Shown here: positions 13,236 through 64,000 of the stretch, in pieces
How the letters are laid out: each line of letters starts with the position of its first letter
How positions within the stretch are numbered: position 1 is the stretch's first letter
Assembly: GCA_965287045.1 (NCBI GenBank)
Contig: OZ336874.1
Location: 2,232,001-2,296,000 of the forward strand
Source: Carcharhinus amblyrhynchos
Taxonomy: Eukaryota
Reading direction: 5' to 3'
DNA: 64,000 nt
Position numbers and translations under genes: made by a program
Notes under the pieces: generated by a model
Database searches by the model: none
The model's input: the letters and a program-made list of their open reading frames with translations, nothing else
Told to the model about the DNA's origin: nothing

Positions 13236-13268
13236 CTTCACCAACCGCCACCGCGCGTGCGCCGCGCC

Positions 13269-13281
13269 GTCTCCCAGCAAC
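13269..13281. promoter_or_regulatory. RFX X-box-like site GTCTCCCAGCAAC
   Basis: Contains the RGYAAC half-site in an imperfect palindrome ~35 bp upstream of the IFT74 ATG; IFT genes are established RFX targets. Confidence 0.65.
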
Positions 13282-13370
13282 GGCCTGGCCCCGCCCCTGC
13301 GCAGTTAGGTCCGCTCCCAGTCACGAGGGAAACCGCCTGGCCCCGCCTCGAACAATCAGCCCCGCCCCCG

Positions 13371-13384
13371 GTTGTCGGGGAAAC
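13371..13384. promoter_or_regulatory. Second RFX X-box-like site GTTGTCGGGGAAAC
   Basis: 14-bp imperfect palindrome GTT...AAC resembling GTTNCCATGGNAAC; a similar motif GTCACGAGGGAAAC lies at 13320-13333. Confidence 0.5.
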
Positions 13385-13509
13385 CACGTGACCCCGCCCA
13401 CCACTTTGTGTTGTCCGTTGGACGATTTACCGCTTTCGGAGTGTCGCGTGCGGCTCGCGGAGGGTGAGGGCGAAGGCGGGGAGGGTCGGTGGTAGGTTGA
13501 GGGAAAGAA

Positions 13510-14480
13510 TGTGAGGGGTTCGGAGTGTGAAGGGGTCGGGGGGGGTTGGAGTGTGTGCTTGGGGGGGGGCGTTGAATTGTGGGGGGCGTTGGAGTCGGGG
13601 GTATTCGGAGGGGGAATGAAGATCAGAATGGGGGGAGGGGGTTTGGAGGGGGAATGGGATCAGTGTGAAGGGGGGTTTGGAGGGGGGGTGGGGGTCAGGG
13701 TGCGAGGGGGGGTTTTGGAGTGTGAGGGGAGGGGGTTTAGAGGGGGAAGGGGATCAGTGTTGGGGGGGGTTCGGAGGGGGAGGGGAGTTCAGCGGGAGGG
13801 GGAATGGGAGTCAGTGTGAGGGGAGTTCAGAGTGTGAGGAGGGGGATGGTTCGGAGGGGGAATGGGATCAGTGTGGGGGGGGGTTCGGAGTGTGAGGGGG
13901 AGGGGGTTCAAAGGAGGAATGGGATCAGTGTGAGGGGGGTTCGGAGGGGGAGGGGGGTTCGGCGGGAGGTGGGGTTCAGAGTGTGAGGAGGAGGGGAGTT
14001 CGGAGGGGGACTGGGATCAGTGTGAGGGGGGTTTGGAGTGGGGGAGGAAGAGGGTTCGGAGGGGGAATGGGATCAGTGTGAGGGGGGTTTGGAGTGGGGG
14101 AGGAAGAGGGTTCGGAGGGGGAATGGGATCAGTGTGAGGGGGGTTTGGAGTGGGGGAGGAAGAGGGTTCGGAGGGGGAATGGGATCAGTGTGAGGGGGGT
14201 TTGGAGTGGGGGAGGAAGAGGGTTCGGAGGGGGAATGGGATCAGTGTGAGGGGGGTTTGGAGTGGGGGAGGAAGAGGGTTCGGAGGGGGAATGGGATCAG
14301 TGTGAGGGGGGGTTCGGAGTGTGAGGAGGAAGAGGGTTCGGAGGGGGAATGGGATCAGTGTGAGGGGGGTTTGGAGTGGGGGAGGAAGAGGGTTCGGAGG
14401 GGGAATGGGATCAGTGTGAGAGGGAGGGAGTTTGGCGGGAGGGGGAGTGGGGGTCGGAGTGTGAGAGGGAGGGGGTTTGG
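13510..14480 (+). repeat. G-rich minisatellite with a 56-bp unit (about 7.5 near-perfect copies at 14001-14420, degenerate copies to the left)
   Basis: CGGAGGGGGAATGGGATCAGTGTGAGGGGGGTTTGGAGTGGGGGAGGAAGAGGGTT begins at 14001, 14057, 14113, 14169, 14225, 14281, 14339, 14395. Confidence 0.95.
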
Positions 14481-14624
14481 AGTTAAAGCAAGTGTATGAT
14501 GAGGAACGGACAGCACCTTTAATATCAAAACAATTCTTTTTCTGCAGGGAGTGATTGAGAAGCAGCCGATGGAGTCAGTCAGATGCTCAGCCCTAGAGCT
14601 CTTTCTGGATAACACAGTCTGAAA

Positions 14625-15460
14625 CAACAACAACACAGACCTGCGTTTCTATAGCACCTTTCAGCAGTCCAAAAATCCTTTTCAGTCAGTAAGTTCCTCT
14701 TTGTTGTAAGGTAGGAAACACAAATTTCCCTGTAACTACTTCAGGTAGACAGCAATCCAATATTGACTCTGAAAATCATTTTTTACTCATCGTGTTGAGG
14801 AATAAATATTGGCCCAGACATCAGGAGAACCCTTCTTGGAAATGATTACCACAGTGTCTTTGATGTCCACCTGAAAAGGCAGTGTTCCCCTTATGGGGAG
14901 CTGCCTCTTTTACTTTGTCCTAATTTAATTTGAGTTTGTGTATTTGGTTTGACTTAAAAGACACCTGGAAAGGCAGTCAGCTTCTTGGTTTCAGACTTCA
15001 TTGAAGACTGACCTCTGACAATGCAGTGTACCCTTGATATTGCCCCTCCGACAGTGCAGCCTTCCTCAGTACTGCCCCTCCGACATTGAACCATAGAATC
15101 CATACATTGCAGAAGGAGGCCATTCAACCCATTGAATCTGCACTGACTCTTCGAAAGAAGATCCTACCCACCCTATTCTCTAAACCCTTTGCATTTACCA
15201 AACCAACCTAACCTACACATCTTAGGGAAGAAACCGGAGGAAACCCAAGCAGGCAAAAGAGATCATACAAACTCCAGGCAGTCTCCCAAGGCTGGAATCG
15301 AACCTTGGTCCTTGGTGCTGCGAAATAGCAATGTTAATCACTAGACCGCTTCTCAGTACTGCCGTTATGACACTGCAGCTCTTCCTCAGTACTGCCCCTG
15401 TGGCAGTACTGCCAAAGTCTCAATACTGACACTGGCGGTGTAGCACACCCTCAATAGTTC
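14625..15460 (-). mobile_element. Deu-domain SINE remnant with internally tandemised motif; degenerate HE1-like SINE inserted at about 15092-15348
   Basis: gttgagg.ataaatattggcc, gtccacctga...ggcag, repeated cctc(c/t)gacagtgcagc...cctcagtactg. Confidence 0.6.
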
Positions 15461-17442
15461 CTCCATCTCCCCCTTTGTCTAAATTAGTGCTTCTAAAATT
15501 TATTTGTTTTTCAAATATGTCACAGATCCCCTCAAATTGTAACTACATAATACTCAAAATATGCAACTGTCTGATGTGAAGTGTGTTTCATTGATATTTT
15601 TAATAAAACAGGAATTTACCTACAAATATGAGTAATTTATGTGTCTCTTTCATTTTGCAGTGTTGGTCTATCATTTCCAAGAGCCTTCGATGGAGAGCAC
15701 AAGTCCAGATAGAACAAAAGCCTGGCGAGAGTAAGATCCAATGTTGGGAAAACATTCGGGAGCTTATTAGGTAGGCGGAGTCTGGAGTGGGTAAAGTCTG
15801 ACAGGAGCTAAAGCAGTAGTATTGAGAGCATGAGAGATCAAAGAGAGGTGGAGCCACGAATGAGAAAAACAGGACCTTGGAGACTGTGGGAGTCCAAAAT
15901 ATGCAGCAGCCTGGATAGAGTGAGGCCTGGAAAGAATGGGAGCCAGAGACAGCAGGACCAAGGCCAAAGAATTTGCGGTCCAGAGTGCACATAAACAAGG
16001 AAGGAACCAGATACTGGAGAGAATAGAAGGCAAGAGAGCGCGAAAGCCTGAGACAAATGCAGTCCATAAACTGCAAAGGGGGAGTTTGAGTCGAGGGGGA
16101 GCAGGAGAAAGAAGGACCTCAAAGTGAACCGGTGCCTGATGTAGCAGGAATCAGAACAGTGGGAGACCAGAAAGAGCTGGAGCTCAGAGTGAACAGAAGC
16201 CAGGAGAGAATGGGAAGCTGCAGAACATGAGAAAAAGGGTGCAGAGACAGTAAAGCACAGGAGCTTCATACAAGTTGGAGCTTGAATTCAACAGGAGTCT
16301 TGAAAAGTGCAGTGATTGAGAGCTCGAAGATGGAGAGGAAGCCTGAGATGAGTGCACATCAGTGAGTGCAAAAATTTAGAGAGTGCAAGAGCCCAGGCAA
16401 CAGGAGAAAACGCTTGGGGAGTTAAAAAAAAGGCAGGAACATTGAGCAAACAATATGGAGACAGCAGGAGCATGGACAGAGGAGGAAGAGAGCACAAGAG
16501 GAACTGGGGAAGAAATTGAACCCTGAGTGAAGAAGAGGCTGAAAAGAGTGTGAGGCCAGAGAGCAGGAGCCAGCAGGAAATGGTACTATAGAAGCCAGCC
16601 GGTGCACAAAAGCAGCATAGAAGGCAGAACACCAAGAAAATTTAGGTCCTAGAGAGTAGGAGCTTAGAGAGAGCAGAGTTCAGTGTGTGTGGTAGCCAGG
16701 AGAGAATGGGAGACCACAGGGAGCAGAAGACTGAAAACAACGGGAAGCAAGAGGCTGGAGGTACAAAGACAAAATTGAGCAGGACACTGAAGAAAGCAGA
16801 AGGGGGGACAAATTGAGTGGACCTGGGGCAACAGAAGCCCAGAAAGAACAAGAAACCACTGGAGAATGGGAGAAAGAATGTTTGGAGATGAGCCTGGAGC
16901 AATATGAGCCCAAAGAAAACTGGCGCGTGAAGTATGTGGGTCTCAGAAATAGTGACAGCAGTGAGTTTGCAGGAACCCGGAGAAAGCAGGAGCATAGAGA
17001 GAAAAGGTTGCAGATTGGAAATTGTCTTTTGCTTTTTGGTTAGTTGCTGTACTTTTAAGAAACAGAGACATTTAAGTAATTGTATTTTTATTTTGTGGGT
17101 GTTAGGAATAAGACGTGGCATTAAAAGTTTTAAGTTTATATTTTTTATTTGGTTAAAAAGGTGAAATTTGTGTTCTAGTTTCGCCTTTAGTAGTGACAAC
17201 AGGTCAGTATTTTTCGATATTACAAAAAATACTTTTCACTGCATACTGAAATGTGACAATAATAAATCAAATCAGGTCTAAGGCTTTGTCTGTGTACCTG
17301 TATTTCAATGAGGGCTCATAAGTTTTGAAGTGGGGAGCTATGTTATCAAGGGTGAATAATTTAGAGAAATAAAAACAAAGTAGAAAAAAACTGCTGTTGC
17401 CTCGCAGCAGGGGCCTTGAGAGAGGGACCTACGGGCACAGAA

Positions 17443-18066: not shown

Positions 18067-18799
18067 ACTTAAAATAACAGTGAAAGTCACATGAGTTTTT
18101 GATCACAAGGGAGGTGCCAAGTCATCATCAATCTACTAGGAGAGGGAAATATGGCCAGAAAATCCTAAAGAAAATAGAGAAAGGTTCAAGAAGACCTTTG
18201 TTAAAGAAAAAGGACGGAATCTTGAACAGATCCTGTTTAATGAAGCTAAAGCAAGAAATAGAGAAAAAGGCTCCAAAAAAGCTGCTAGAAGCTAATTAAA
18301 GCAAATGTGCTTGTGAAAAATCAGAAGATACAAGGAGATAGCCAAAGATTTGCAATTCTTTACTATAAGCCTGTGAAAATTGAGAGATAAGTTCATCCTT
18401 ACTTTCATCAGTGAGGAAACAAACACAGGAGCAAGAGTGTACAGGTTATAACTTCAGCTGAACTGGCATTGTGCAAGGAGGTCCTTGGGTTGCCTCCAAT
18501 ATGAAATGGATTTTTGGCTGCAGTGATCACAGCAGCTTGATACTAGGCATCAGCATTGAAAACTGCACCACATACTGACTTGATAACCACCTCATACGTG
18601 GCACTTCTGGCAAAAAACACCTCATGGATTGGTTTCCTCATTCATCAGTAGAACTGTATTTTGATCATCACGTTCTATTAGTCAGTCAACTCTCATCTAA
18701 ACTAGGCCAATACAACCAATAATATACCAGCCCTGTCAATTTCTGCCTTCCTGTCAGGGTACTGAGGGATACGGGATGAAAAAGTGGATGGAAAGTGTA

Positions 18800-21125
18800 T
18801 ACAGATAAAACCGAAATGAGAAATCTTCCAGCTAGTGTGGTGCAGTGTCAGGTTTGTGTCGTCACGTGAACATTGATCCACAGTGTACAGCGATTGTATG
18901 CAAGACTGCATTGATTGTCAGCTACCCAAGTTGGTATTGTAATAACTGCTTTATTAAAGATCAGATTAGACTGAAGCAGACGGACGTTCATGCACTGGTG
19001 ACTGAATTGTACAGAATACAATGACAACAGACATCGGCTTAGCTCTGATCCAAAGAAACTATGCCTTACCTACTTTCAGGGCAAACATTGCCACGAGGTA
19101 TGACGATATCTTCCAAGGTCTGGCCATTGGCACCAACTTGAGCTCATCAGCAGAAGCAATTTGCCTATTCTTCTTGATACACCTGCACCATACAGCAGTG
19201 ACTGCGATCATTCTCTTGTCAGCATCAGAGTGAAGGTGCAATCCTGAATGTTTCATATTGTCAACTCGACTGCCTGTCGGTTCTCAACATCTATATTAAA
19301 AGAAATTGCAGCGAATGTTCACAGTTTGCTTTGGACTTTGAGGAAGTTCCACTTTATCAGGAAATGTCAATGCAGGTATTGTTGAAGGTTGCAAGTTGCT
19401 GAATTCAGTTAACCATGGCACAGTGTCACCAAGACTTGATAAAGGTGGAACCTGTAATAATAACTGATTCGAGATCTGTCCAGAGATGACATCTGCCATT
19501 ACAGTGAAAAGCAACAGAAGCTTCCACATGCACAGGAGAAACCCAACAACTTGAATACTGTATGAATTGAAAGGAGCCAAGGCAGATGTGCAAAAGGCAG
19601 GCAATTATCACATGGCATGTCTTACATAAGAACATAAGAAACAGGAGCAGGAGTAGGCCATCTAGCCCTTCGAGCCTGCCCCGCCATTCAATAAGATCAT
19701 GGCTGATCTGTTGTGGCTCAGTTCCACTTTCCCGCCCTCTCCCCATAACCCTTAATCCCCTCTCTTATCAAGAACCCATCAACCCGCTTCTTAAAAATAT
19801 TTAGCGAGGCAGCCTCCACCACTTCAACGGGCAGAGAATTCCAGAGATTCACCACCCTTTGAGTGAAGAAGTTCCTCCTCAACTCCGTTCTAAACCGCCT
19901 CCCCTTTATCTTGAGGCTGTGCCCCCTAGTCCTACTGTCTTTTTTGAGCGGGAAGAGTCTCTCCACCTCTATCCTATCCATCCCATTCATCATCTTATAC
20001 GTCTCAATGAGATCTCCCCTCATTCTTCTAAACTCTAGCGAGTACAAGCCTAGTTTATTCAGCCTCTCCTCATAGCTCCATCCCCTCAACTCCGGTATCA
20101 GCCTAGTAAACCTCCTCTGCACTCCCTCCAGGGCCAAAATATCCTTGCGCAGGTGTGGCGCCCAAAACTGCACACAGTACTCCAGCTGCGGCCTCACCAA
20201 TGCCCTATACAGCTGCAGCAAGACCTCCCTACTTTTATATTCAATCCCCCGCCAATGCTGATGAAACTCACTCGTCACCCACATGGAAATTGAGCTACAA
20301 GGACACATGGATTTATTCTCCCATAGTGGTAACTTATTTTCTCCTTGTTATAAACATCAAGACAACTGCAGCCATTTGCCTTCAAATACATTAACTAACA
20401 CTGGAGATTGGTACAAAGTTGTCTATAGAACCATGTTGGCAGTTAATCTCACTGAGCTGAAGCAAAGGGAATGGCGCTACCACCATTGTCTGACACTCAA
20501 AATGTATGTGGAAAACACTAAGCTGGCCCTTTGGATCACCAAAATATCGATTTGAGCCCTATGTTACCAGAATTTGTGTGGCTATGAAGCATGAATGACC
20601 TTGACCCATCAAGAGAAGAAGTTCATCAATTATCAGTTTTGATGTGTGTGGTACATTGGCATCTGATGGAAGGCGGAAATAAAAGATATGATTGTCCTCA
20701 AAGACAAATCTCTCAAGTACTAGCACCTGTTATGTAGAGGTGTCTTAGTTCTCTGGATGCATTCAGAGGATGAAACAGAAACATGTGAATGATATTCTTA
20801 TGGGGAGGTACCTGGAGAACGACCAGTAAGATGCCCAAATCTCTGCTTCAAGGAAGTGTGCTGTGAAGCATGGCGTAAAAGTTGTCGATATTAATTGGCA
20901 AATGCAACAGCTTGACAAGCTCCAAAAACAGATGCTTGTAACAACAACATATAAGCATCTTATATGTGGCACCTATGTTTGAATCTGCCTTTCATGTATT
21001 GGTCTGTTCAGCCATCAACAAAAATTTGGTCTTTTCAGCTTTCAACAAAAGTATATCACCTAAAACGGTCCCATCGCGAATGCGTTTCTTGCATGTCAAG
21101 TATTTCACATAGATGGAAGAATGCT
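18800..21125 (+). mobile_element. Decayed RTE-clade LINE, array copy 1 (interrupted by CR1)
   Basis: Endonuclease-like start, ADETSLVTH and 3' motifs shared with other copies; many stops. Confidence 0.8.
19624..20250 (-). mobile_element. Young CR1/HER1-type LINE, 5'-truncated
   Basis: Near-identical to 8724-9350. Confidence 0.95.
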
Positions 21126-24100
21126 TCAGATGATGGAGGGAATCCATGAGCATGAGAGAATCTGAGATGGATACCATAGGAATGTGCAGTGTACAGAAGC
21201 CCAGATAATTGGGAACATAGGGAAGGAACGTCAGCCAGAAGAGTGGGATACCGGAGACAGCAGGAACCTCGAGATTGTGGGCTTCTGAGGGCAACAGCCT
21301 AAAGAGCGTTGAAGCCTGTGAAGAATAGGAACCCAAGGAGGATGGGAACTGGTATGAGAGTGAGCTCAGTGAGAATGCATGCCTAAAGAGAATGGAAGGT
21401 CTTCAATTTGAGGGGAGTATTAGTGCTGAGTAATTCTAGGATCCCAAGGAAAATGAGTATCTGTGGCGGGTGGAAACCTTATGTTTGAAGAGGTTTGACT
21501 CTAGAAATAACACAGAGAAGAGGAAAGAGAGAACCAAAGGAGTGAGGAAAAACAACATGGTGAGAGCAGTACAAAGAAAGAACAGAGTACTAGAAGAGCA
21601 ACAGAAAGAGTTGGATCCCTGAGAGATAAATAGGCCTGGAGGAGCAAGAAGCCAAGGAGTGGAGAGAACATGAGCCCAGAGAAAATGGTATCCCACAGAC
21701 AGTGAGTGCATGAAGAGAGCATGTGCCCAGTGAAAACGAGAAGTCGGATTTTGCAAATGCAAGAGAATACCAAAATCAGACCTCAATGTGAGGATAGCGT
21801 GGAGCATGGTTGTTGAGAGAGGATAGAAGCCTGGAGTGAATGAGAACCTGGACAATTTGAATCCAAAGAATGTGCGTCACTGAAGTGGGAAGGAATCTGG
21901 GTAGAATGCTGAGGCAACAGAAGCTTGGCAAGTGCGGGAGTCTGGAGAGAACTGGAATTTGAAGAGTTCAGATGACCAGTGGCAGCAAAAACGTGGAGAA
22001 AGACAATTGAGCCAGAGGCTTGAGAATGTGAAGACAAAAGGAAGTATAGAAGATAAATATGAGCCGAGCAATGGGGAGCATGAACCTGGGAAGAATGGGT
22101 GTCTGGAAAGGAGGAGTGTGCATGAGACTGGGGAGAATGAAAGCTTGTAGAGAGGAGAAGGCAAGAGAACCTGGAACATACACCTGAAAAGAACAAAAGT
22201 CTGAGTGCTTTTGTCAACGCAAAGAAAGCTGTGGCATGGACAGAATGGGAGTCTGTTAGGGCCGGAATCTCTATGCTTGGTGAGAGTGGCAGAGCCTGAG
22301 AGTCCTGGATCATAAGGAGAATGGGAGCCAAGAAACAATGGAAGTCTGTGCTGAGGCGAAAATCGGGCGTGCAAGGGAATGATTGTAGAGGACATGGTGA
22401 AGATGTGAAACTAAAGGATGTGGGATCTGGAGTCAGCAGGAGCCAAAAGAAAAATTGGAACCAGCATATAACTGAATCTTGAGATGGGTCAATTACAGAG
22501 TGTGAATGAAGCCCAGAGTGATTGCGAGGTCAGGAGGAACAACAGCAAGACAGAGCAGGAGTTTGATGCAAACAGAAGCCTGAAGCCAACCTCTGAAGCC
22601 TAGACAACACCAGAGCCCCAAGGAGAATGTGAACCCGTGGAGAGCGGGAGCATGTGGTGAATGAAAACCCAGGAGAGCAGGAATCCAGGAGCAATGGGAG
22701 CTTGGAAGCAGCATGAACCTGAAGAGACACCAGTGAGCATGCTACCCGTGTGAGGGGAAACCTGAAGATAACGGTCAGAGAGAATTAATCGAAAGGGAAC
22801 TGAAGCCCAGAAAAAATAAGCCAGGAGGAAAGGGATGCCCAAACACAAGCTGGTACCTGGTACAAGTGGATTTCTAGAAGACGTGAAGTCTGGCAAAAGG
22901 AAATAATTATAAGGAGCAGGCGACCAGTGTGTGCAAAGCAAGAGAGCAGGAGGCTGGAGAGCACAAAAGCCCAATGTGTGCTCAACTGAAGAGAGCAGGA
23001 TACTGGAAGATACACGAGTGCCAGATACTGAGGAACATGGGAACTTGGATAGTATGGGAAGTCAGTAAGAGATTGAGAAAAGCAAGACCTAGAGAAATGG
23101 CAGGAGCTCAGAGATATCAAGAGCTGAAAGATAACTGGAGCCCAGAGATTGTGGGTAAATTAATCTCTTACATTTGGAACTCTAGTCTTTAGATCTAAAT
23201 GACAAATGAATCTTGGTTCTGCCTCAGCTTCTTGTACCTGGTGTTAATAGGATGATTTTGGTTCTCTGAGCAAAGAAGACCCACAATGATGGAGGAAAAT
23301 CTGAAAGCATTCACACACTGCACATTAGCATAACACGCACAGATTAAAAGTTTACAGTTCCAGGAAGAAAGAAATTTAATATCATGGTGAATGGATGGAA
23401 CTGGGGCTGAGTTCTCTAATTTGATTCAGAGACTGATATTGGGGTGATTTGAGAACAGAATTGCAATCAACTGGCCTGAATCAACACTCAAAGACTGAGG
23501 CTTGTGGAGATCACTCACTGTTTTCACTTATTCATGGGAGAGTTTTAGTAATTTAACTTCATTGTTGTGATGAGGGTTTAATCTGAGATTTTCTTACTAA
23601 GGGTGTTTAGAGCTAAGGTGTGTATTTTATTGGTGATGTTTTGTGTTGAGATGGAATTTTACTTATAATGTTTTGAGCTTCATGGGAGTTCTTTTGAGGT
23701 GATTTGGTGCTGAGATGGGTGTTTTACTGAGGACTTTAGATCTGTAATATTGTTTCATTCAGGAGAGTTGAATGTGGAGGCTGCATTGTTTATTGAGAGG
23801 GTTTAGTAATGTGTGCCCAGGATTAATTGATCAGTTGGGGGTTTATTGTGGTATTCTAGTGCTGAGTGCATTCATTCCGCCAGTTGATACAGGGTGATGG
23901 GGTGGCAGTTGCAAGCGGAGCTGTGACTTAGCCCACTTAGGTAAAGAGATTTGCTACAAGAATCGACATAAGTGACAGCTAAGGCCACAGAGTTATGAGA
24001 CAGTGGCTCAGACCCTGTTGGCTGCCATGAAGATTGCATATTTCAAGGTTGAGGAAATTCTCCCAACAAATAAACGTAGAGTGTAATCCCACTCAGCTTT

Positions 24101-24689
24101 TGAAAATCATTTCTGAAATCTACTTGGAACAACTGCAATTGAGCATGTCCAAGCTTTTATCATTCTGGTGAATATTCACTTACAACGTGAAGAGGAGATT
24201 TTGGATGCTGGATACTTTTGCACCTCCCAGAACCATGAGTAGAGCTTTGCAAGAAATCAATTTGAGAGGTAAGTTCATCCTTGCTCTCATCAGCAAGGAA
24301 ACAAACGCAGGAGGCAAGAGTGTAAAGGTAATAATTTCAGTGAAACTGGTTTTGAGCAAGGAGACCAGGCCATAGCTTGCCATGAACAGGGAGATGAACT
24401 TTTGGCTGCAGTAATCACAGCAGCTCGACACTAGGCATCAGCATTGAAAACAGCACCACACACTGACTTGATAACCACCTCGTATGTGACACTTCTGGTA
24501 AAAACCACTTCTTGTGGATTGGCCTCTTCAGCCATCAGCAGAAATACACCATGTGGTCATCTCATTCTATTGGTCAGACAATTCTCACCTCAAGCTGGGT
24601 GATCCCAACTAGTGATATACAAATCCCACCAACTTCTGCCTTCCTCTCAGGATAGTGGGAGATAACAGGTGAAAGAGTAAATGGAAAGT

Positions 24690-27035
24690 GTGTAGCAGTG
24701 AAACTAAAACGAGAAATCTTCCAGCTTGAAAGATGCAGCATCAGAACTGTATCCTGGCATAAACATTCGCCCATAGTGTACAGCAGTTGTGTGTAGGAAG
24801 CTCTGATTGTACGAGAGCTATGCAAGTGGGAGTTGTCATTACTACTCAAATAGCAGGCAGATTAACCAACAGACGCCATGTGTAAGGTTAGCTACAACTT
24901 CTATTGCCATATTAAGAGCAAAGTGATCACCATAATGTTGGCTTTGCAGTTAGCAATATATTGACATACTCAGTTGATTAAACAATAGCAACATCTGGAC
25001 ACCTCACCTGTAATACACTGTGGATCACGTTCCATCTGTTTATTCATAAATTAGTTCAAGACACCGACTCAATCAGACGGATTCATGCTGTTTATGCCTT
25101 GGTCATGGAATTGTACAGAATACAATGACAACAGACATCAATCTCTTGAATTCTGCTCCGAATCTTTCAACCGTTGCCACATGGTACCCTGTTATCTAAA
25201 TCAGGCCCTTGGCACCAATCTGACCTAATCATCAGTAGAAGCAATCTGCCTGGTCTTCTCCATACAACTGCATCATACAACACTGATCAATCGTTCTCTT
25301 ATCAGCATCAGAGTGAAGTGCAACCCTGAATATTTTATATCTACAACACGATAGCTTGTCAGGCCTCAACATCTATGTTAAAAGAAATTACGACAAATAC
25401 TCACAGTTTGCTTTGGCTTTGAACAATTTCCAGGTCATGAAGTGTTGCCAGGAAATGCCGCTGCAGATATTGAAGGTTGCAAGTTACTGAGTTCAGTTAT
25501 GGTACAGCATTGCCAACAATTGGTAAAGGTGGAACCAGCAACTATAATTGATTTGAGGTTTACCCAATACCACATCGACCATTACAGGAAAAAGCAACAG
25601 AGCTTCCAGTTGCACAAGAGAAAGCTAACAGCCAAAATACTGCCTGAATTGAAGGGAACCAAGTCAGATGTGCAAAAAACAGACAGTAATCACTTAATCC
25701 TGCCTCAGATCTACCTATGTCAAAAAATCCAAGCTGACTGTGACAGTGGATTTCTGTGTCCTGAATACTGGGATCGAGAGGACACTTGGTCCTATCATTA
25801 CCAAGTTTCCCTTTTGAAGTAACAGACTGTTATGAAAACTACTGAGAGATGTATTAATATAAGAATGATGTTCGAAATGGTAAACAGCATTTGATGCTCA
25901 TCCACAGCTTCTTACTGTAGACAAGTTAGATGCTGGACTTTCAGTAAGGGAACTTGATAAACCATACATTACTTCATGATAACTTGTCCAGTACAGCACA
26001 TATTGATGGCTCTACTTCCACAGTTTCATTCTGAAGAATAGAGTGAAACAGCCTGTGCTCCTGTTTTTTCTGCTATTCCTTCGTTGTGCTCTTGGCTTTT
26101 GCCTTCCTCCCTATAGGCAAGGATTTTCCATCCAAATAGAATTGATGGCAAAGTCTACGATTTGACTAGATTCAAAGCAAAGACAAAACAACAGCATGCC
26201 TTGATCAGAGAACTCATCTATGCTAATGAAACCTCACTAGTCACCTACTTGGACACTGAGCTACAAGGACATGTGGATTTGCTCTCCTATAGCAGTAACT
26301 TATTTCCCCTACTATAAACATCAACAAAACTGTGGCCATTTGCCTTTTAATCACACTAAACAACACTCATTGAAAGCAGTTAGCAAGGTGTGTATATACT
26401 GTGGTCTGTAGTGGCAGATAATCTCACTGAACTGATGCAAAGTGAATGCAACTACCATCATTGTCTGACACTCAAGATGTGTGTGGAAGAACATCAAACT
26501 GACCCTTTGGATCGCCGATATGTTGGTTTATGAGGCCTGTGTTTCCAGAACTTCGTTGTACGACTGTGAAGCATATATGACCTACAGCTCTCAAGACGAG
26601 GTACATCAGTATTCAAATTAAGTGTGTGTGGTGCACTGTTAGCATCTGACGGAAAGTGAAAATGACAAAATGATGGTCCTCTTGAAAGCAAACCAAGTAT
26701 CCGTGTTTGGGTTTCCAGGAAACATTCAGAGCCATGTGTGACAGATATTCTATATGGGAAGGTGTCTGAAGGCGGAAGACCAATTGGATGTCCAAATCTC
26801 CGCTTCGAGGAAGCGTTCCATGAAGCATCATGTAAAGGCTGCAAATGTTAATCGGCAGATGGAACAGTTTGACAGCAGGCTCCAAAAGCAGATTCTGAAA
26901 TCAACAGCACATAATCATATTATATGTGGCCTCTGTGTTGAACCTGCCTTTTAGGTGTTGGTCTGTTCGGCCATCAACAAAAGTGTATTATGTGTTTTTT
27001 ACATATCAGGTATTTCACGTAGATGGAAGAATGCT
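24690..27035 (+). mobile_element. Decayed RTE-clade LINE, array copy 2
   Basis: IDGKVYDLTRFKAKTK..HALIRELIYANETSLVT resembles the RTE RT pattern DGKLFNLARLRAKTK...LIRELLFADD. Confidence 0.85.
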
Positions 27036-28837: not shown

Positions 28838-29012
28838 GTGCTCTTAGGCTGATTGGTTTACCAAATTGACACTACTCTCCCCTGAATCTGGCTAAGGTAG
28901 GGGTTCCACTCGCAGACACGCAGGGCAGGGTAGGTGTAGGAGGATGCAGCGGCGCGGGCTTGTTGGGCCAAAGGGCCTGTTTCCCGTGCTGGGTTGTTCT
29001 TTGTTCTTTGTT
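28838..29012 (+). mobile_element. 5'-truncated SINE 3' part with (TTTGTTC)n tail
   Basis: aaagatgtgc..ttaggctgattgg, gggccaaagggcctgtttc; interrupts the host motif ggaaacctgaagataacagg seen intact at 22756 and 39729. Confidence 0.7.
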
Positions 29013-43200: not shown

Positions 43201-43446
43201 ATAACAGAGGGATCCCATGAGCTGTGAGCAAGGAGGAGATGGAGACTGTGGAAGAATGCAGTCTGTAGCAACCGAGAGAATGGGGAACATGAGGAGTGAG
43301 CATCAGCTAGGAGGCTGTCAAATACCACTGAGAGCAAGGACTGTTTCGATTGTGCAATTCCAAGGGCAACAGCAGCATGGAGAGTCTGATAGCCTGTGGT
43401 AATTGGGAACCCAAGGAAGATGGGAATTCAGAGCTCTCAGGAACTT

Positions 43447-46351: not shown

Positions 46352-46607
46352 GTTTGCACATTCTCCTCGTGTCTGCATGGATTTCCTCCAGGTGCTCTGG
46401 TTTCCTCCCACAGTCCAAAGATGTGTGGGTTAAGTTGATTGGCCATGCTAAAATTGCCCCTTAGTGTCCTGAGATGCGTAGGTTAGAGGGATTAGTGGGT
46501 GAATGTGTAGGGATATGGGAGTAGAGTCTGGGGAGGAATTGTGGTCGTTGCAGACTTGATGGGCCGAAGGGCCTCTTTCTGCACTGTAGGATTTTATGAT
46601 TCTATGA
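46352..46607 (+). mobile_element. HE1-like V-SINE, 5'-truncated, in block C
   Basis: Starts at gtttgcacattctcc; tail gcactgtaggattttatgattctatga. Confidence 0.9.
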
Positions 46608-52632: not shown

Positions 52633-53034
52633 TACAATCAACAGGGACAGCTTAAGCTGCAGAGTCATGAGATGTTGGCTGAAATCCTGTTGGCTGCCAG
52701 TTTTATGAAGATCGAGATTTCCAGGCTAAGAAATTTCACCCAACAACAAACCTGCAATGTAATCACATTCGGCTTTTGAAAACCTTTCAAGAATTCTGCT
52801 TGTAACAACACCTGCAATTGAATTGTCCATGCTTTTGTCATTCTGGTGGATATTAGACTACAAAGTGAAGATGGCATTTTGGATGTTGGATACGTTTGCA
52901 CCATGTGATCATCACATTCAATTGGTCAGTCAACACTTGTCTCAAATTGGGCCGATCCTGGCCAGTGATGTACCAACCCTGTTAATTTCTGCCTTGTAGC
53001 GTAGTCGAGGGGATAGGTGTAAAGTTATGCCAAC

Positions 53035-54935
53035 GAAACTAAATTGAGAAATCTTCCTGCATAAACAGTGCAATGTCAGGGTCATGTCCTGTCATGAACA
53101 TTGGCCCACAGTGTACAGCACAAGACAGTTCTGATTGATCCTGAAGTACCCAAGTTGGTGTTGGGATTATTGCACAACTGAAGATTGCATTAGCTGACAG
53201 GGCCTCTATGCGTGAAACTATCCACAACTTCTGTGGCACTTTAAGAACAAAACCATTCAACAAAGTGTTTGCTTTGCAATTAGCAATAAATTGACATTCT
53301 CCGTTGATTCAACATCTGGACGCCTCATCTGTAGGATACTGTGGAGCACGTTGCAGATGGTGAGAACTTATCCATTGTAAGACACTGAATGGAACAGAGA
53401 TTCATGTCTTATGCTTTGGTCATTAAATTGTACAGAATACAGTGACAACAGACATCAGCTTATTGAGCTCTGTTCAGAATGAACTATGCTGAACCATCTT
53501 ACCTTTTGTTTGCCCTGAATGAATGCTGATGTCACCCAAAATCTGGTCATTGACATCAACCAAAACTTATCATCAGTAGGAGCAATTGGCCTAGTTTTCT
53601 CCATACACCTGCACCATACAGCACTGACTGTGAGCATTCTTTTGCCAGCATCAGAGTGAGGGCGCAATACTGAATGTTTATCTCCTAGACGAAGGCTTGT
53701 CAAGCCTCAATGTCCCTGATAAAAGAAATTACAGCAAATAGGCAGTTTGCTTTGGCCTATGAGCAATTTCCACATTATGAAGTGTTACCAGGAAATGTTG
53801 ATGCAGATATTATTGAAGGTTGCAAGTTACTGAGTTCAGTCATCTATGGCACAGCATCAGCAACATTTGGTAAAAGTGAAACCTGCAACTGTAATTGATT
53901 TGAGTTCCACCCAAACAGAGATGACATCTGCCATCATGGCAAAAAGCAACAAAGCCTTCCAGATGCGCAAAGGAAATCCAATAGTCGGAACATGAATTGA
54001 ACAGCCAAGACAGATGTGCCAAAGATATCACAGTTATCACATAAATCTGCTGCAGATCAGCCTATCAACAAATCCAAACAGTCTGTGACAATGGATTTCT
54101 ATGTGCCCTGAATGATGCAACTGAGAGGACACTCGGTCTTATCGCAACCAAAGTTTTCCCTCTGAACTGACTGACTGTTATGAAAACTACTGTCCTATAA
54201 GAATGATATGTCAAAATGCACTTGATGCTCATCCACAGCTAGATGTTGAACTCTCAGTAAGGGAACTTCCTTTCTTGACAGCTTGTCCAGTACAGTGTAT
54301 TTTGATGGCCCTATGTCCTACGGTTTCAGGTGAAGAATGGAGTAAAATTAAAGTCCCCATTTTGCCTGGTATTTCGTCGTTCAGCTCTTGACCTTTGCCT
54401 TCCTACTGTAAGGAGTTTACATGCCAGTAGATCTGATAATAGTCTCTACAATCTGACTAAATTCAAATCAAAGACAGAAATATGGCAAGCCTTGATCAGA
54501 GAACTGGTCTATGCTGATGAAACCTCACTCGTCACCCATATGGTAACTGGGCTACAAGAACATGTGGATTTGCATGCTCACAGCAATTACTTACTATGAC
54601 CATCAAGAAAGTGGTGATCATTTGCCTTCAAACACACTAAACACTGATTGCAAGTGCTTAGCAAGTTGTGCATACCTTGGTCCATGGTCTCAGGAACCAA
54701 TGCAAAGAGATTGCAGCTATCACCATTGTCTGATGTTGAAAATGTGCATGGAAAACACCAGGCTGCACCTTTGGATTGCCAAGATGTTGGTTTATGGGGC
54801 CTGTGTTCCCAGAACTTTGTTGTACGGCTATGAAACATGAATGATTTAGAGCTACTAAGACAATAAGTTGATCAATTATCAGCTTTGATGTGTGTAGTGC
54901 ATTGTTGGCATCTGATGCAAGGTGAAAATAACAAG
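53035..54935 (+). mobile_element. Decayed RTE-clade LINE, array copy 6 (3'-deleted)
   Basis: SRSDNSLYNLTKFKSKTEIWQALIRELVYADETSLVTH. Confidence 0.85.
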
Positions 54936-56829
54936 GCCGGAAGGCCTAACTGTGGGTAAATGAATTTCACACATTTGGAACTAGTCTGTAGGTCTAAGTG
55001 AGAAATGAATCCTGGTTTTGCCTCAGCTTGTTGTATCTGGTGCTAATAGTGGGATGTTGGTGCTCTGAGCAAAAATAAGACTCGCAAGGATGGAGTAAAG
55101 TCTGAAAGCATTCACAAACTGCACATTAACATAACATGGGCAGATTAAAAGTTTTACAGCTCCAGAAAGAAATAAATTTAATATCATGGTGAATGGAAGA
55201 AATTGAGGCTGAGTTCCCAAATTTGATGCAGAGACTGGTGTTGGGACAATTCAGGAGAACAGAATTGCTGTTGCCTGGCTTGGATTAGCACGGCAAAAGG
55301 TAAATGTGGACATGAATGTTCTGTCAAATGATATGCAGTGTCAGAAAAGTGGTGAAAATAATAACAGCAAGGATTTATGTTTCTTTTTGGTAAGAAAGAC
55401 ACAAAAGTCAAATTTTATTCGGAATTACTAGTTGCTGAAGGGTAATATCGTGTAGTTTTCTCTGTGGTGACAACTTGATAGTTTGAAGCCTTGGCGTATG
55501 AAGTGGGGAAACCTGCTGACATGATGGAGCAGCCTGAGTGAAATAAACTGGTGGAAATTCTGGATCTGGTTGTCATGGATTGGTTCATCCGATCTCTACC
55601 CCAGTTGATTTGGATCTAGACCCTAGCATGAAGCTATCTACAACTTCTGGTGGCATTTTAAGAACAAAACCATTCACCATAGTGTTTGCTTTGCAATTAG
55701 CAATAAATTGATATTCTCTGTTGATTCAACATCTGGACGTCTCATCTGTAGGATACTGTGGAGCACATTGCAGATGGTGTAGGAGTTGTTCAATATGGTA
55801 AATTGACATCTATTGTGGAGGAATTGGTTTGTGATTCATCAGATGGTCCCTCCATGCCTGAAGTATTGTAGAGACCCCAGTATAACCATTTGGGACAATG
55901 TGAGTGCTGAAATACAGCAAGAAGCTGTGCAGGGTCCGTACCATATTTGGATCAAGTTTAAATATGTTGATGTCTTCTTTAGTCTGTCTTGTGATAGGCA
56001 GGGCAAGTTGGTATCCAAACATTGGGGAGCTAATGTACGATAGTCTGCAAATCAGAAGACAAATTCTGAGGAGGGCTCTTTGGGCCTCATGCAGTCTGAG
56101 CCATGTGAATGCCACTCACTGTTCTCAGTTATTTTTGGCGAGTTTTTTTTAATGTATGTTCATTGTTGTGATGTGGCTTTAATCTGAAGTTGTGTTACTG
56201 AGGGTGTTTAGCACTAAGGGGTATGTTTGATGTTGACGTGCGATTTTACTTCGAATTGTTTTGAGCTGAAATGGGAGTTCAGCTGAGGCAATTTGGTGTT
56301 TTATTGTGGAGTTTTGGATCTCTGATTTGTCTGTATTGAGCAGAGATGAATGTGGAGGCAGTGTGGTTTATTGTGGAGATGTAGTGATGTGTGCCATGAA
56401 TTGATCAGGTTGGTGCTTTACTGAGGGATTTTACTGCTGAGTTGCTTCCATTCTGCTGGTTGATGCAGTGATGGTGAGGCAATTGCAAGCGGAACTGTGG
56501 AGATTCACCACAAGAATCAGCAAGAGACAACTAAAGCTGCAGTCATGATACAGTGGCTCAGACTCTTGGCTGCCATTTTTATCAAGATCAAAAGATTTCA
56601 TGACTGAGGAATTTCACTCAAGAATAACTCTGGAGTGTAAACCCATTTGACCTTCGAAATCCTTTAAGAAATGTCTTGTAGCAACCCCTACAAACTAGAG
56701 TGTCCAAGTATTTATCATTCCAGTGGATATTAGCCTACAAGGTCAAGACTGGATTTTGGATGCTGGATACATTTGTGCTTCCCTTAACCATAAGTAGAAC
56801 TCTGCAAGAAACTAAATTAAGAGGTAAGT

Positions 56830-58060
56830 TGCTGAGTTTAGTCATCCATGGCACAGCATCACCAGCACTTGGTAAAGGTGGAACCTACAACAATAATTGA
56901 TTTGAGATCTACCCGAACAGTAAATAGTAAAAAGCAACAAAGTCTTTCAGATGCACAAGAGAAACCCAACAGCCAAAACGCTGTATGAATTGAAATGAGC
57001 CCAGTCAGATGTGCAAAAGACAGGCAGTTATCATGTACATCTATCACAGATCAGCCTATGTGAAGAAATCCAAGCTGTCTGTGACAATGGATTTCTCTGC
57101 TCCATTAATGATGAGATTAAGAAGACACTTGACTTGATTCTATCATTCCCAAATTTCTCCTCTGAACTAACTGCCTGTCATGAAAACTACTGTAAGCTCC
57201 AATAAGAATGACATGTCAAAACACATTTCTTCATTGTACTCTTGATCTTTGACTTCCTGCCAATATGCAAGGATTTTACATGCAAACTCTGGTCATTTGC
57301 CTTCAATCACTAAGTAACACTCAAGTTGTCTAATATATCTTGGTCCATAATGGCAGATAATCTCATTGACTCAATGCAAAGGGGATGCAGCTACCTCTAT
57401 TGTCTGATGCCCAAGATGTGCATCAAAAACACCAAGCTGCCCCTTTGGATCACCAAGATGTTGATTTATGAGACTTGTGTTCCAGGACTTTGTTGTATGG
57501 CTATGAAGCATGAATGACTTAGAGCTGTCCAGATAGGAAATTCATCAGTAATCAACCTTGATGTGTGCAGTACAATGTTTGCATCTGACAGACAGCAAAA
57601 ATAACAAATGTGATGGTCCTTTCAAAGGCAAATCTGTCAAGTGCTAGCACTGATCAAGTAGAAGTGCCTTTTTGCCCAGAACACATTTGGAGAATAGCCA
57701 TATGTGAAGGATATTCTGTAAGGGGAGGTGGATGGATGCGGAAAACAAGGAGTATGGGTACAGAAGACAAGTAGGATGCCTGTACCTCTGCTTAATGGAA
57801 GTGTGCCATGAATCATGGCATAAAGGTCATAAATATAATTGGCAAATGAAACAGCTTGACAACGAGGTCCAAAAGCAGATGCTCACAATGACAACATATA
57901 ACCATTTATACGTGCTACTTGTGCTCAAACCTGCCTTTCATGTATTGGTCTATTTGGGCATCAACAAAAGCGTTGGTCTCTTCAGCCATCAACAGAAGTG
58001 TATTGCGTTGAATGTATTAGAGCCAATTCAAGTATTTCACATAGATGGAACAATGCTTCG
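56830..58060 (+). mobile_element. Decayed RTE-clade LINE, array copy 7 (multiple deletions)
   Basis: Collinear pieces of the same element ending in cacatagatggaa.aatgcttc. Confidence 0.8.
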
Positions 58061-59385: not shown

Positions 59386-59459
59386 ACTGACCTGCCAATA
59401 ACAGCCTTTCTCACTTGTTGGTGGAGGATAAGGGGTTAAAAGCTGGATGGAAAGTGAGT

Positions 59460-61865
59460 ACCGACCAAATGAGAATGATTCCAGCTTGAAAGGTATAGCA
59501 TCAGGGCTGTATCCTGGCATGAACATTGACCCACATTGTACAGCAACTGTACACAAGACAGTTCTGATCGATCGTGAGCTACCCAAGTTGGTGTTGACGT
59601 TACTACTCGATTGGAGATTAGATTAGCTGACATAGATTCCATGTGTGAGGCTAGCTGCAACCCCAGAATTTTCATAACTCCAACACAATAACTTGTCAGG
59701 CATCAACATACCTCATAAAATAAATCGCGGTAAATATTTTCATTGACGTTTGAGAAGTTGCCATTCCATGAAGCAGAAAATATCGATGCAGATATTATTG
59801 AAGGTTGCAAGTTGCTGAGTTCAGTCATCCAGCACAACATCATATTTGATAAAGATGGCACCAGCAACAATAACTGATTTGAGATCTACTCATCAGAGAC
59901 GATACCTCTCATTAAAGTAAAAAGAAAATCCTTCCAGAGGGACAACAGAAACCCAACACTGCATGATTTGAAAGGAGCCAAGTCAGATGAACAAAAGGCA
60001 GAGGGTCATCACATAAATAAGCCCTGGATCAGCCTATATCAATAAATCCAAGCTGTATATGAGAGTGGATTTTTATGCACCATGAATGGTGGGATTAAGA
60101 AGATACTTGGTCCTATTCTTACCAAAGTTACTCCTCTGAAATTGGCAGATGGTGAAGTACTTTGCCACAGAAGCGACTGCTTGGAATGAACACTATAATG
60201 AACTACCATGAGATTGACATCTCCATGGTGCACTTGATGCACCTTCACAGCTTCCTGTTGTGGACAAGTTAGATGCAGATCTCATTAAGGGAATCTGAAA
60301 AAGCCATTAAGTCCCTAATGAGCAGAAAGGTACCTGTCAAGAATAGCATTCCAGCCAAATTGCTTGATACGGTGAGCCCAATTTATTGCCACACCGTCAT
60401 AACATTCTCCTCTTCTATTAAGTTAGGATCAGTTGCACAAGGAGTGCATGAGACAAATATCACTTTGTTATATGAAATGAAAGACAGCAAAGAAGACTGC
60501 TACACTGCAGGAACCTCTTGCTCCTAGAATTATTGGGAAGGCCTTTGAGGGTCATACTGAAAAATATTCCAGCAATTTGCAGACCAAGTTTACCTAAAGC
60601 ACAGTGCAGCTTCTGTACTGGCAGCTTTACAGTGGACACGATCATTTCCTTAGTGCAGCTGCAAGCGATGTCTTAAGGAAAAGGACATGTCTTTCTGCCT
60701 TGCTTTCCCAGATCTCATAAGAACATTTATTAAAACCTTTAGTGAAGCAAAACACTACAAAGGTTTGGAGAAAATTTTCCACCAAAACATGGTTTCACCT
60801 GTTCCTTTCATGACAATATGCCAGTGCAGTACATTTTGATGGCTGACTGTCCCACGGTTTGAGGGAGTGGAGTGAAACAGCCTCACCCTCCATTTTATCT
60901 GTTATTTCTTCATTATGCTCTTGACCTTTGCCTTCCTGTCGATATGCAAGGATTTTCCGTGAATATAGATCAGTCTTTACAATCTGACCAGATTCAAAGT
61001 GATGTCAAAAGTATGGCATATTATGATCAGAGAACTCCTCTACGCTGACGAAACCTCACTATTCACCCACACTGAAACTAAGCGACAGAAAAATCTGGAT
61101 TTTCTCTCCCGTACTTGTAACCTATCCCTCCTTACTATAAAAGTCAAGGGAACTGTAGCCATTTGGCTTCAATCACACTAAATATCACTCCACTGGAAGT
61201 GGTTAACAAGTTAATATCTTGGTCCACGATGGCAGATAATCTCACTTATTCCACGCAAAGGGAAAACAGCTACCACCTTTGTTTCATGCTCAAAATGTAC
61301 TTGGAAAAGCACCAAGCTGACTCTTTGGATCTCAAAAATGGTGGTTTATGAGGCATTTGTTCCAGAATTTTGTTGTACAGCTGTGAAGCATGAACAGCTT
61401 AACAGTTATCAAGACAAGAAGCTCAATAATTTTCATCTTTGATGTGTGTGGTGCTTTTTTTGCATCTGATGGGAAGTGAAGATTATAATTGTGATGGCGC
61501 TCTCAAAGACAGATGCTCGCGATCATCAGGTTAGTTCCTTGGAGAGATTCAGAGGGTGAGACTCAGCCACATGCAAAGAATATTCCAAAGTGTCTGGAGG
61601 CAGACCAGTAAGATGCCCGAAGCTCTGCTTCAAGGAAGTGTGGCATATAACATGGCAGGAAGGTCGTTAATATTGTTAATTGATAAATGCCACAGACTGA
61701 CAGCAGGCTCTAAAAACAGATGCCCACAATGACAGCTTATAACCATGTTGAGCCTGACTTTCATATATTGGTCTCTTCAGCCATCAACGAATGTGGTGAT
61801 CTCTTCAGCAATCAACAAAAATGCATCATGTTAAACATTCTCATCACCAATGTGTTTCCCACATG
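59460..61865 (+). mobile_element. Decayed RTE-clade LINE, array copy 8 (retains the 470-bp RT segment)
   Basis: KTVLIDRELPK...RLADIDSMCEAS (endonuclease pattern KTAVIDREL...RLADSGSLREANY); IRELLYADETSLFTHTE. Confidence 0.85.
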
Positions 61866-61867
61866 CC

Positions 61868-62352
61868 TAGAACATTACAGCACAGTACAGGCCCTTCAGC
61901 CCTCGATGTTGTGCCGACCAGTGGAACCAATCTAATGACCCTCTAATCTAAACTGTTCCAATATTATCCATATGTCTATCCAATGACCGTTTGAATGTCC
62001 TTAAAGTTGGCAAGTCCACTACTGCAGGCAGGGCATTCCACGCCCTTACTACCCTCTGAGTAAAGAACCTACCTCTGACATCTGTCCTATATTTATCACA
62101 TCTCAATTTAAAGCTATGCCCCCTTGTGTTAGCCATCACCATCTGAGGAAAAAGGTTCTCGCTGTCTACCCTGTCTAATCCTCTGATCATCTTGTATGCC
62201 TCAATTAAGTCACCTCTTAATCTTCTTCTTTCTAACGAAAACAACCTCAAGTGCCTCAGCCTTTCCTCATAAGACCTTCCCACCATACTAGGCAACATCC
62301 TGGTAAATCTCTGCACCCTTTCCAGTGCTTCCACGTCTTTCCTGTAAAATGG
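61868..62352 (-). mobile_element. CR1-type LINE 3' fragment (different subfamily)
   Basis: YRKDVEALERVQRFTRMLP...LFSLERRRLRGDLIEAYK...TRGHSFK...FFTQRVVRAWNALP. Confidence 0.92.
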
Positions 62353-63479
62353 TGCTTTGTCAGAGCATAGCCTGGCGGCAATGAGAGTCTGGAAATTGGA
62401 AGACAGAAGAGTGAATTGAAAAGGGAATATAGGAACCTGATGCAGGCAAAAGCCTGAAGACAACGACACCAGAGAAAGTAGACTAAAGAGAATGGAAGCT
62501 TGAATGGAATGGAAACCAGGCGAGAGCTTGAAAATTTGGGAAACCCTAGGAACAAGAGGCCAGACAGAATGGGACCCAGGTGGGGGCAAGAGCCCAAAGG
62601 AGCATGTGCCTAGAGAGAGAGACCATGAGCTTCATTGAACAGGAGGCAAAGACAGCAAGTGCCTGGGAACAGTAGGCGTATGGAATGAGATGCTTCTGGA
62701 ATGTGGAAGCAACTGTTAAGAGCCTGTACCTGGGAAGAACTGGAACTCCGAAGGTACTAAAGCCTGGGAAGAGGGGGAATGAATGGGAGCCTGGAGTAGG
62801 TAGGAGAAAGTTGGAAACTAGAGACCTGGATACTTTGGGAGCTTGGAGACTGTCCGAGGCTGGAAAAATCGATTGGGAGCCTACTCAGAACAGATGACTA
62901 GAGACAGCAGCAGCTGGGAGAGTGCGGGAACCTGAAGAGAATACTTGGCCCGAGAGAACAGGAGCTTGAGATGAGTGGAGTCCAGAGAGTGGAAGAGCCC
63001 AGAGGGAGCAGGAGCCTTCAGAGAGCAGGAACTCAGGGACAGCTGGTGCTCAGATGGAGTGGAAACCATGGAATGGCAGGCTGGAGATTGTAGAGGCAAG
63101 AGCGCATAGGAAACCATAAGTCTCTGGCATGCAAATCTGAAGACTGTAGGAGCTAGTCAAGAACTGGAACCAGGTAAACACGGACGCAGCAAGAGACCAG
63201 AAAGAGTGGGAGCCCAGACAGAATGCGAATTGAGTGGAGAGACCAGTCTCCAAAACAGAATAAGAGCCTGGAGATATCATGATCCCAAAGCAGAAGAAAT
63301 CTGATGCAAGCAGATCCGGGTAGAATTCAAGCCCAGAGCTAAGAGAGTACGGAAGACTGTGGGGGACAGGAGCTCAGAGAGTGCGGAAGGTTTGATGAGC
63401 TCACCGGTTTTGCAGTTGTACTAGATTGACACAGTCAATTGAGTTACCAGTAGTAACTTCTGACCATCTCATCACTGCA

Positions 63480-64000
63480 ACAGAATGAGAGAAATTTTAA
63501 CATCATCATGGAATGCCAATGCTTAAGACAAAAATCTACTCTTTGACTCTCTGTGATGGTGTGGAACATATTTCATGGGGTGAAAAGTTATACATCTTAA
63601 ATAATTTGCACAAATACTGAATTGGGCAGACATTTGTAGCCTATGTACCTTGATCAGCATGAGGTTGACAAGATCACCAACAACAGACAATGACTTTGTG
63701 CCCAGAATGAACTCTGCATTGCCAACTTTCTTCCAGGGTAACCATTGCAACAGGGTACCAGGACATCATTCAAAATCTGTCTATTAGCAGTAACTTGACC
63801 TGATCATCAGAAGATGCAATCTGCCTGGTATCCCGTACCTACCATTCCATAGCTTGTGATTATTCTTGCAGCAGAGAATGAAGGTGCAGTCCCAAAATTT
63901 TCACAGCTCCAACATAACAACTTGGCATGCATCAGCATCCCTAACAAAATAAATTGTGCCAAATGTGAGCAGCTTGTGTTAAGTCTTGAGCAAATTCCTA
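63480..64000 (+). mobile_element. Decayed RTE-clade LINE endonuclease/linker region, copy 9, running off the window
   Basis: tcatcagaagatgcaatctgcctgg; ttcttgcagcagagaatgaaggtgca homologous to 19145-19240 and 25230-25320. Confidence 0.7.

Follow-up and report, generated by a model that had tools for sequence, protein, structure and literature searches.

A spliced non-coding RNA divergent from IFT74 and a 50-kb array of old direct repeats in Carcharhinus amblyrhynchos, with signs of germline transcription

What is transcribed from the far side of a cilia-gene promoter that faces some 50 kb of repeats, all in one orientation and with no long open reading frame (ORF)? We address this question for the IFT74 locus of the shark Carcharhinus amblyrhynchos, using a window of 64,000 nucleotides (nt) from assembly GCA_965287045.1 (contig OZ336874.1, G000:C5:2,232,001-2,296,000); positions below are those of the window unless a contig is named. 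The initial annotation, made from the letters alone, had proposed a large non-coding transcription unit on the plus strand opposite IFT74, either a long non-coding RNA (lncRNA) or a precursor of Piwi-interacting RNAs (piRNAs). We report that a spliced non-coding RNA is indeed present there and that it enters an array of old repeats; the existence of this transcript, together with the anatomy of the array, we consider close to certain. As to its role, we tentatively favour (rough probability 0.4) a germline-expressed, repeat-built divergent lncRNA that may act as a long repeat-rich RNA scaffold resembling FIRRE.

Sequence reads covering 14490-17440 were examined in three of nine runs classed by guess as RNA type (X1, X2 and X7) and in the DNA run X10. 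In X1, a contig of 201 nt fuses 14551-14688 straight to 15661-15725 with no letters between them. The skipped 972 nt start with GTAAGT and finish at the 15660 acceptor, and since the intron reads GT..AG on the plus strand the transcript is assigned to that strand. Three further X1 contigs lie over exon 3 (15790-16052, 16092-16246 and 16678-16949; depth ~3-5), and cover is zero in the unique bins of the intron, while X10 has continuous depth in 30 of 30 bins. Only a few sites differ between X1 and the window, so X1 represents the same or a very close species; in X2 and X7, which are from other organisms, only common repeats were covered, and these runs bear on the transcript neither way. The splice signals named in the initial annotation (donors at 13464 and 13492, acceptors ending at 14547 and 15660) are all in place. 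Use of the 15660 acceptor, which had been put forward as a check, follows from the joining of 14688 to 15661, and the contig begins 3 nt inside the exon that follows the 14548 acceptor site; the donor actually used before 15661 is at 14689, which was absent from that list. No processed copy of these exons was present among the scored matches in the shark's own genome. The transcript comprises:

13270-13463, plus strand: candidate exon 1, predicted from sequence, with its donor at 13464 and an alternative at 13492
13597-14482, plus strand: G-rich tandem repeats in candidate intron 1, with a 56-bp unit and 8.6 copies in the youngest part
14548-14688, plus strand: exon 2, 141 nt, with a 17-codon ATG frame (X1 contig 14551-14688, acceptor and GTAAGT donor)
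14689-15660, plus strand: intron, 972 nt, GT..AG, skipped in X1 and continuous in X10
15661-16949, plus strand: exon 3, within the first A/G module of the array (X1 contigs), with candidate donors at 16961 and 17076

This is a spliced RNA longer than 200 nt (in one run, whose RNA status is guessed) that lacks a protein-coding frame, as expected for an lncRNA. The longest ATG frame in the spliced models has 76 codons, and exon 3 carries frameshifting indels relative to both X1 and X10. Comparison of the stop-free frames in 11 A/G stretches with shuffled sequences gave no excess at P<0.05 (0 of 11; lowest P 0.055), in keeping with the earlier remark that no long ORF survives. A coding reading of the A/G modules was rejected on account of their period of 17, the lack of ORF excess and the lack of a relevant Pfam match for five frames.

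The array itself had been described as unidirectional and longer than 48 kb. Self-comparison upholds its direct repeats and sets its extent at 49.7 kb, from 15661 to ~65,270 in window numbering and thus ~1.3 kb beyond the window end. All its modules are direct repeats, reverse matches of at least 80 bp involving only insertions of short (SINE) and long (LINE) interspersed elements, and 40,684 of the 44,951 non-insert bases (90%) have a paralogue within the array. The unit consists of an RTE-like LINE remnant, an A/G module, an AT-rich spacer and a G/T module, with copies that are mostly 70-76% alike:

15661-64000 (on to ~65,270), plus strand: old direct-repeat array, from self-comparison
18377-21110, plus strand: RTE-like LINE remnant, the first of nine, all sense and with many stops and frameshifts
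~24260-27020, 33870-36120, 37010-38930 and 40240-43180, plus strand: other RTE-like remnants
~52900-54940, 56830-58040, 59400-61880 and 63400-65270, plus strand: other RTE-like remnants
21110-23140, plus strand: A/G module, a decayed 17-bp minisatellite, from autocorrelation
27030-29580, 31290-32290, 36130-37000 and 38940-40230, plus strand: other A/G modules
43780-45900, 48150-51150 and 62370-63380, plus strand: other A/G modules
23150-23490, plus strand: AT-rich spacer, the best-kept module (0.80-0.86), with copies at 29620, 32333, 45955, 51215 and 54951
23530-23900, plus strand: G/T module, a decayed minisatellite of ~33 bp, also at 33290, 47260, 52170 and 56130

At least roughly a third of the array is old RTE-like sequence, which, as the initial annotation had cautioned, lies sense to the transcript in all nine remnants. 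Of the nine copies of the reverse transcriptase (RT) region, seven form a star-like tree at 69-76% likeness, one aligns at 62-66% and the last at 52-58%. One of 12 frames gave an RVT_1 match (E=1.2e-4, under the curated cut-off), and dispersed relatives at 59-69% identity also speak for an RT; the read-through translation of the RT region returned no protein homologue; the label RTE follows motifs that we assume to mark this clade. For the A/G modules the autocorrelation at lags 17 and 34 is 0.356 and 0.327, respectively (0.286 expected), and in the G/T modules it peaks at lag 33 (0.363 vs 0.298). A younger, well-kept 17-bp A/G minisatellite of 3.5 kb on C14 (~28,995,045-28,998,540) resembles the decayed unit of the array; being merely a minisatellite, it was rejected as a second array. 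The A/G tail was likewise dismissed as a regular part of the RTE family: none of eight other dispersed RTE-like loci has it, and one, at ~100.144 Mb on C4, does. At the C4 locus the 3' portion of the RTE is followed by the beginning of an A/G module; this copy is old (62-72%) and was perhaps made from the array unit very early. It also contains the AG-ATG word that precedes each A/G module, which we considered and rejected as an acceptor with a start codon; the word is presumably the end of the RTE-like frame. Divergence from the other A/G modules is greatest for the first (15661-16980) and the last (62370-63380), which is what one expects of the edges of a tandem array.

Just past 15661 the purine content climbs from 0.56 to ~0.7, and to this extent the array does become A/G-skewed at the second acceptor; the skew is not array-wide, being limited to the minisatellite-derived modules and near zero in the RTE parts. 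Because the A/G modules are decayed 17-bp minisatellites the skew is inherited from the repeat units, and because tandem duplication yields a single orientation anyway this orientation is uninformative, so neither serves as the hint of transcription that it had been taken for. We rejected a transcription-driven skew, since none of the six substitution pairs is asymmetric (P 0.13-0.94). In alignments with the dispersed copies described below, 133 changes fall in the array and 190 in the copies, and as the alignment favours the array we draw nothing from these counts about its rate of evolution.

Does RNA run through the array in the germline? Own-genome DNA searches were made with array pieces as queries, leaving aside 17.8-19.6, 29-30.2, 43.8-45.7 and 46.6-47.8 kb; in one array search the best 38 of 4525 candidates, mostly SINEs, were scored, and copies of 48-59 kb may have been missed there. 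Array-specific sequence recurs, among the scored matches, in at least five partial copies: the old one on C4 and four at 90-99% identity. The features behind the four younger copies are:

46352-46610, plus strand: 5'-truncated, promoterless SINE without the tRNA-like head, beginning at position 87-94 of the full element
41410-46599, plus strand: source of a 4.8-kb copy on C6 (92%), which is without the SINE at 43441-43771 and holds unspliced array sequence
46045-46610, plus strand: source of the C14 copy (92%)
46131-46624, plus strand: source of the C8 copy (99%)
32096-33166, plus strand: source of a copy (90%) located at C5:39.72 Mb, abutting a CR1-like fragment in the same sense

Three of these four copies end within a 26-bp span (46599, ~46610 and 46624) at the tail of the headless SINE, and their 5' ends vary (41410, 46045 and 46131); the chance of such clustering of 3' ends is ~3e-6. 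They extend only upstream of the SINE, with blunt, non-homologous 5' junctions. All three have the unique/SINE junction in common, yet they differ in age and are not mutual descendants (variable sites split 26/21/37). The SINE at 43441-43771 arrived after the C6 copying, because it is missing from the C6 copy and carries a 5-nt duplication in the window, and the C8 copy carries the private SINE letters of the window. The simplest reading is that the three would be retrocopies of plus strand RNA. Since they are inherited, the source RNA would have been present in the germline or early embryo, and we regard germline read-through of the array as probable. The C5 copy might be taken for a chimera with its CR1-like neighbour; template-switch chimeras are made by several LINE clades and in mammals seemingly involve largely U6-type RNAs (PMC4476161), and this mammalian limit weakens a chimera reading. 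The C8 copy (~8.8586 Mb) has a 76-bp internal deletion and sits in another repeat; it has the look of a templated insertion of recent date, perhaps a polymorphic one.

Young insertions are scarce in the array. When array matches to 15 loci with array copies or RTE relatives are omitted, 13 insertions of at least 82% identity remain, compared with 29-39 in each of six downstream blocks of equal size (49.8 kb; Poisson P=7e-5), a 2.5-fold depletion relative to the downstream flank. The number agrees with a list of inserts compiled by eye, and at 86% the counts are 9 vs 22-25. On the IFT74 side there are 27 insertions of at least 82% in 53 kb, so that the array is about half as dense. Five of the array inserts are sense, six antisense and two of undetermined orientation. 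The array is thus transposon-poor in the manner of pachytene-type piRNA clusters, and it is not a flamenco-type transposon trap, which would be rich in recent antisense transposons; here they are depleted and of mixed orientation.

The transcript and IFT74 diverge on either side of a CpG island:

13050-13600, no strand: CpG island, putative shared two-way promoter, with X-box-like sites near 13269 and 13370 and MYB-type hexamers at 13278, 13302 and 13415
13119-13235, minus strand: first coding exon of IFT74, 39 codons from the ATG, by protein match; further exons down to ~2620

The observed/expected CpG ratio is 0.9-1.3 across 13101-13700, and within the first 330 kb examined this is the sole clear unique CpG island. 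The motifs reported earlier (CAACGG at 13278, CAGTTA at 13302, CCGTTG at 13415 and both X-box-like sites) were found where they had been placed, using what we take to be the X-box and MYB consensus. Enrichment of the hexamers is marginal over chance: 13240-13465, a window picked post hoc, has three where 0.60 would be expected (P=0.019), and in the wider 13050-13500 P is 0.056. CAACGG is part of an X-box-like site; RFX factors control IFT genes, and such a site would be expected in the promoter of any cilia gene.

How might these observations fit together? In our favoured reading, that of a repeat-rich scaffold RNA, transcription would start at the IFT74 island under RFX and perhaps MYB control, and the plus strand RNA, spliced from exon 2 to exon 3, would in germ cells extend over most of the array, to act as a scaffold in the manner of FIRRE. 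A LINE enzyme could prime on the internal SINE tail of the read-through RNA and copy upstream until falling off, and selection would remove new insertions, since what matters is the long repeat RNA or its uninterrupted transcription. Historically, one unit composed of an RTE remnant and minisatellites may have been amplified in an ancient burst beside the promoter, after which the copies drifted. Local repeats are enriched at lncRNA loci, and one of the repeats of Firre acts as a nuclear-retention signal (PMC4820808); the likeness is that of a spliced non-coding gene with repeats almost confined to the locus and mixed with transposon remnants. Here, likewise, 90% of the non-insert bases have paralogues inside the array and at least five partial copies lie outside it among the scored matches. 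The locus differs from FIRRE in its units of 5-9 kb, built of LINE and minisatellite and 25-30% diverged, and in a promoter shared with a cilia gene; a sequence relation was neither found nor expected. Other transcribed arrays of kilobase units in one orientation, such as D4Z4, DXZ4, SNORD115/116 and C19MC, differ in that the present units are unhomogenised and have no ORF or known small RNA.

Several observations weigh against the scaffold reading. The RNA was seen in one of three RNA-type runs, a low-depth run of guessed RNA status and unstated tissue, and within the stretch examined its reads extend no farther than 16949. The share of words in X1 (0.12) is about that of the exon pieces (0.076) plus young CR1 (0.060), which leaves little for 17.8-23.2 kb, so that this sample gives no sign of read-through. 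Relative to the X10 relative, 18 of 1300 sites differ in exon 3 and 8 of 972 in the intron, so that constraint on the sequence is not apparent. The plus strand shows no shortage of poly(A) signals (26 seen, 19.8 expected), and 22,241 array sites gave no strand-asymmetric substitution pattern. As for the dispersed copies, no target-site duplications were found at them, the C8 copy overshoots the SINE tail by 14 nt, only one of three plus strand SINE tails was used, and copies were sought for the array alone. Counts of splice and poly(A) signals gave no clear strand pattern.

Among the alternatives, a single-strand precursor of the pachytene type, expressed in spermatocytes under A-Myb from a two-way promoter and giving mostly uniquely mapping piRNAs, is possible but doubtful. 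The RNA is long, non-coding, insertion-poor and likely abundant in the germline, the C6 copy amounts to 4.8 kb of unspliced array sequence, and the three MYB hexamers would suit A-Myb. In mouse, pachytene precursors contain few transposons, can be spliced and frequently arise from two-way promoters (PMC11615739). Elephant shark has A-Myb, with high levels in ovary and testis (PMC5635590), and its gonadal piRNAs are listed in PMC8538981; as cartilaginous fishes have both, the idea is reasonable. With the clusters treated in PMC7782496 and PMC11615739, the locus has in common a long non-coding single-strand layout, a putative two-way promoter, few young transposons and MYB-type hexamers; likely germline expression, here deduced from the dispersed copies, may be added. 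PMC7782496 gives low or intermediate CpG promoters for more than 80% of mouse pachytene clusters, with output that tracks a long first exon or the lack of splicing. Here, on the contrary, the CpG ratio is ~1 and the first exons are short and spliced (~190 nt for the candidate, and 141 nt), so that these typical, though not obligatory, features are missing, and the locus further departs from such clusters in being a tandem array rather than unique sequence and in having a protein-coding partner. The MYB signal fades in the wider window, with one site overlapping an X-box, and the inserts lack antisense bias. Moreover, the sense RTE remnants, at 59-69% identity to their dispersed relatives, would make a poor silencer of those relatives.

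An unlikely explanation is that the two-way IFT74 promoter yields the RNA as a by-product, which two good splice sites make stable, and that the array is a fossil macrosatellite without a role, whose shortage of insertions stems from insertion bias or deletion. Divergent transcription is common at CpG islands, where lncRNAs are spliced on the opposite strand beside a protein-coding first exon as here, and the low X1 depth, the unconstrained exon, the star-like drift of the copies and a skew accounted for by a minisatellite present elsewhere would all agree. The present RNA differs from such lncRNAs in entering a 50-kb repeat array and in having apparently left retrocopies, which argue for more germline RNA than typical unstable upstream transcripts provide. 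Against a by-product stand also the insertion density, about half that of the transcribed IFT74 side and 2.5-fold under the flank, the 5-kb stretch that stayed colinear with its C6 copy over ~8% divergence, so that recent turnover is no explanation, and the repetition of copying at three ages, which points to a lasting RNA. It is very unlikely that the exons form the non-coding 5' part of a distant protein-coding gene, or that the locus hosts repeated small nucleolar RNA (snoRNA) or microRNA (miRNA) in its AT-rich spacer. This module is better preserved than its neighbours and in most of its few copies has a donor-like word, an acceptor-like word ~220 nt on and C/D-box-like words; yet spacer and array gave no Rfam match at curated scores (known families) and one at chance level (E=0.99), where an snoRNA/miRNA host array would repeat a known small RNA, and no sharp conservation peak is seen. 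In 340 kb of downstream sequence, scanned crudely, no coding exon was convincing: 53 exon-like frames, of 65 listed after dropping nested ones, gave one sub-threshold Pfam match (AKAP95, E=9e-4, ~180 kb past the array at L018:9639-9773; probably chance). Most improbable is a short lncRNA ending near 17 kb, with the array outside the transcript and the dispersed copies made by SINE-mediated repair at the DNA level. It would suit the end of X1 cover close to a candidate donor, the C6 copy that both begins and ends in SINE sequence, the missing target-site duplications and SINE parts that are less alike than unique parts (0.86 vs 0.90; 0.90 vs 0.95), but not three copies that lie only upstream of the SINE and stop at its tail with blunt 5' junctions, nor the private SINE letters in the C8 copy.

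A bolder version, which we rate as rather doubtful, combines the scaffold and precursor readings: an ancient germline gene of cartilaginous fish, serving as piRNA precursor or chromatin scaffold, in which a dead LINE and two minisatellites were amplified behind a captured cilia-gene promoter and whose RNA, abundant in germ cells, left retrocopies at three ages. Were it to yield piRNAs, it would be a first locus of pachytene type defined beyond the bony vertebrates, and A-Myb-driven clusters would then date back to the ancestor of jawed vertebrates, an origin that PMC5635590 proposes from Myb data alone. This shark locus is an exact place at which to ask when such clusters arose. Even without piRNAs, it would be an lncRNA built from 50 kb of repeats whose importance is signalled in two independent ways, by a lasting germline RNA and by a shortage of insertions, and its retrocopies offer a way of reading past germline transcription from genome sequence alone. 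Neither this locus nor shark piRNA clusters were described in the literature searched, which left out most subscription papers.

The partner gene on the minus strand is IFT74, as had been proposed: the exon at 4706-4813 matches IFT74 proteins throughout the named rows and the translation of 13119-13235 is 73% identical to the N-terminus of a named shark IFT74 (one exon used as query against PDB gave no IFT74 match). In human, PLAA presumably lies head-to-head with IFT74. The PUL domain of PLAA was located at C5:42.48 Mb (42,480,026-42,480,574), on the same chromosome and 40 Mb from IFT74, which rules PLAA out as the divergent partner and leaves the far side of the promoter free; a rearrangement that separated the two genes may have freed it. 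Four young CR1-like copies, 94-98% alike, are present in the window (6253-6942, 8717-10266, 10993-11636 and 19624-20250), three of them inside IFT74 introns, and one of the four has a 482-codon open RT frame (RVT_1 E=6e-35).

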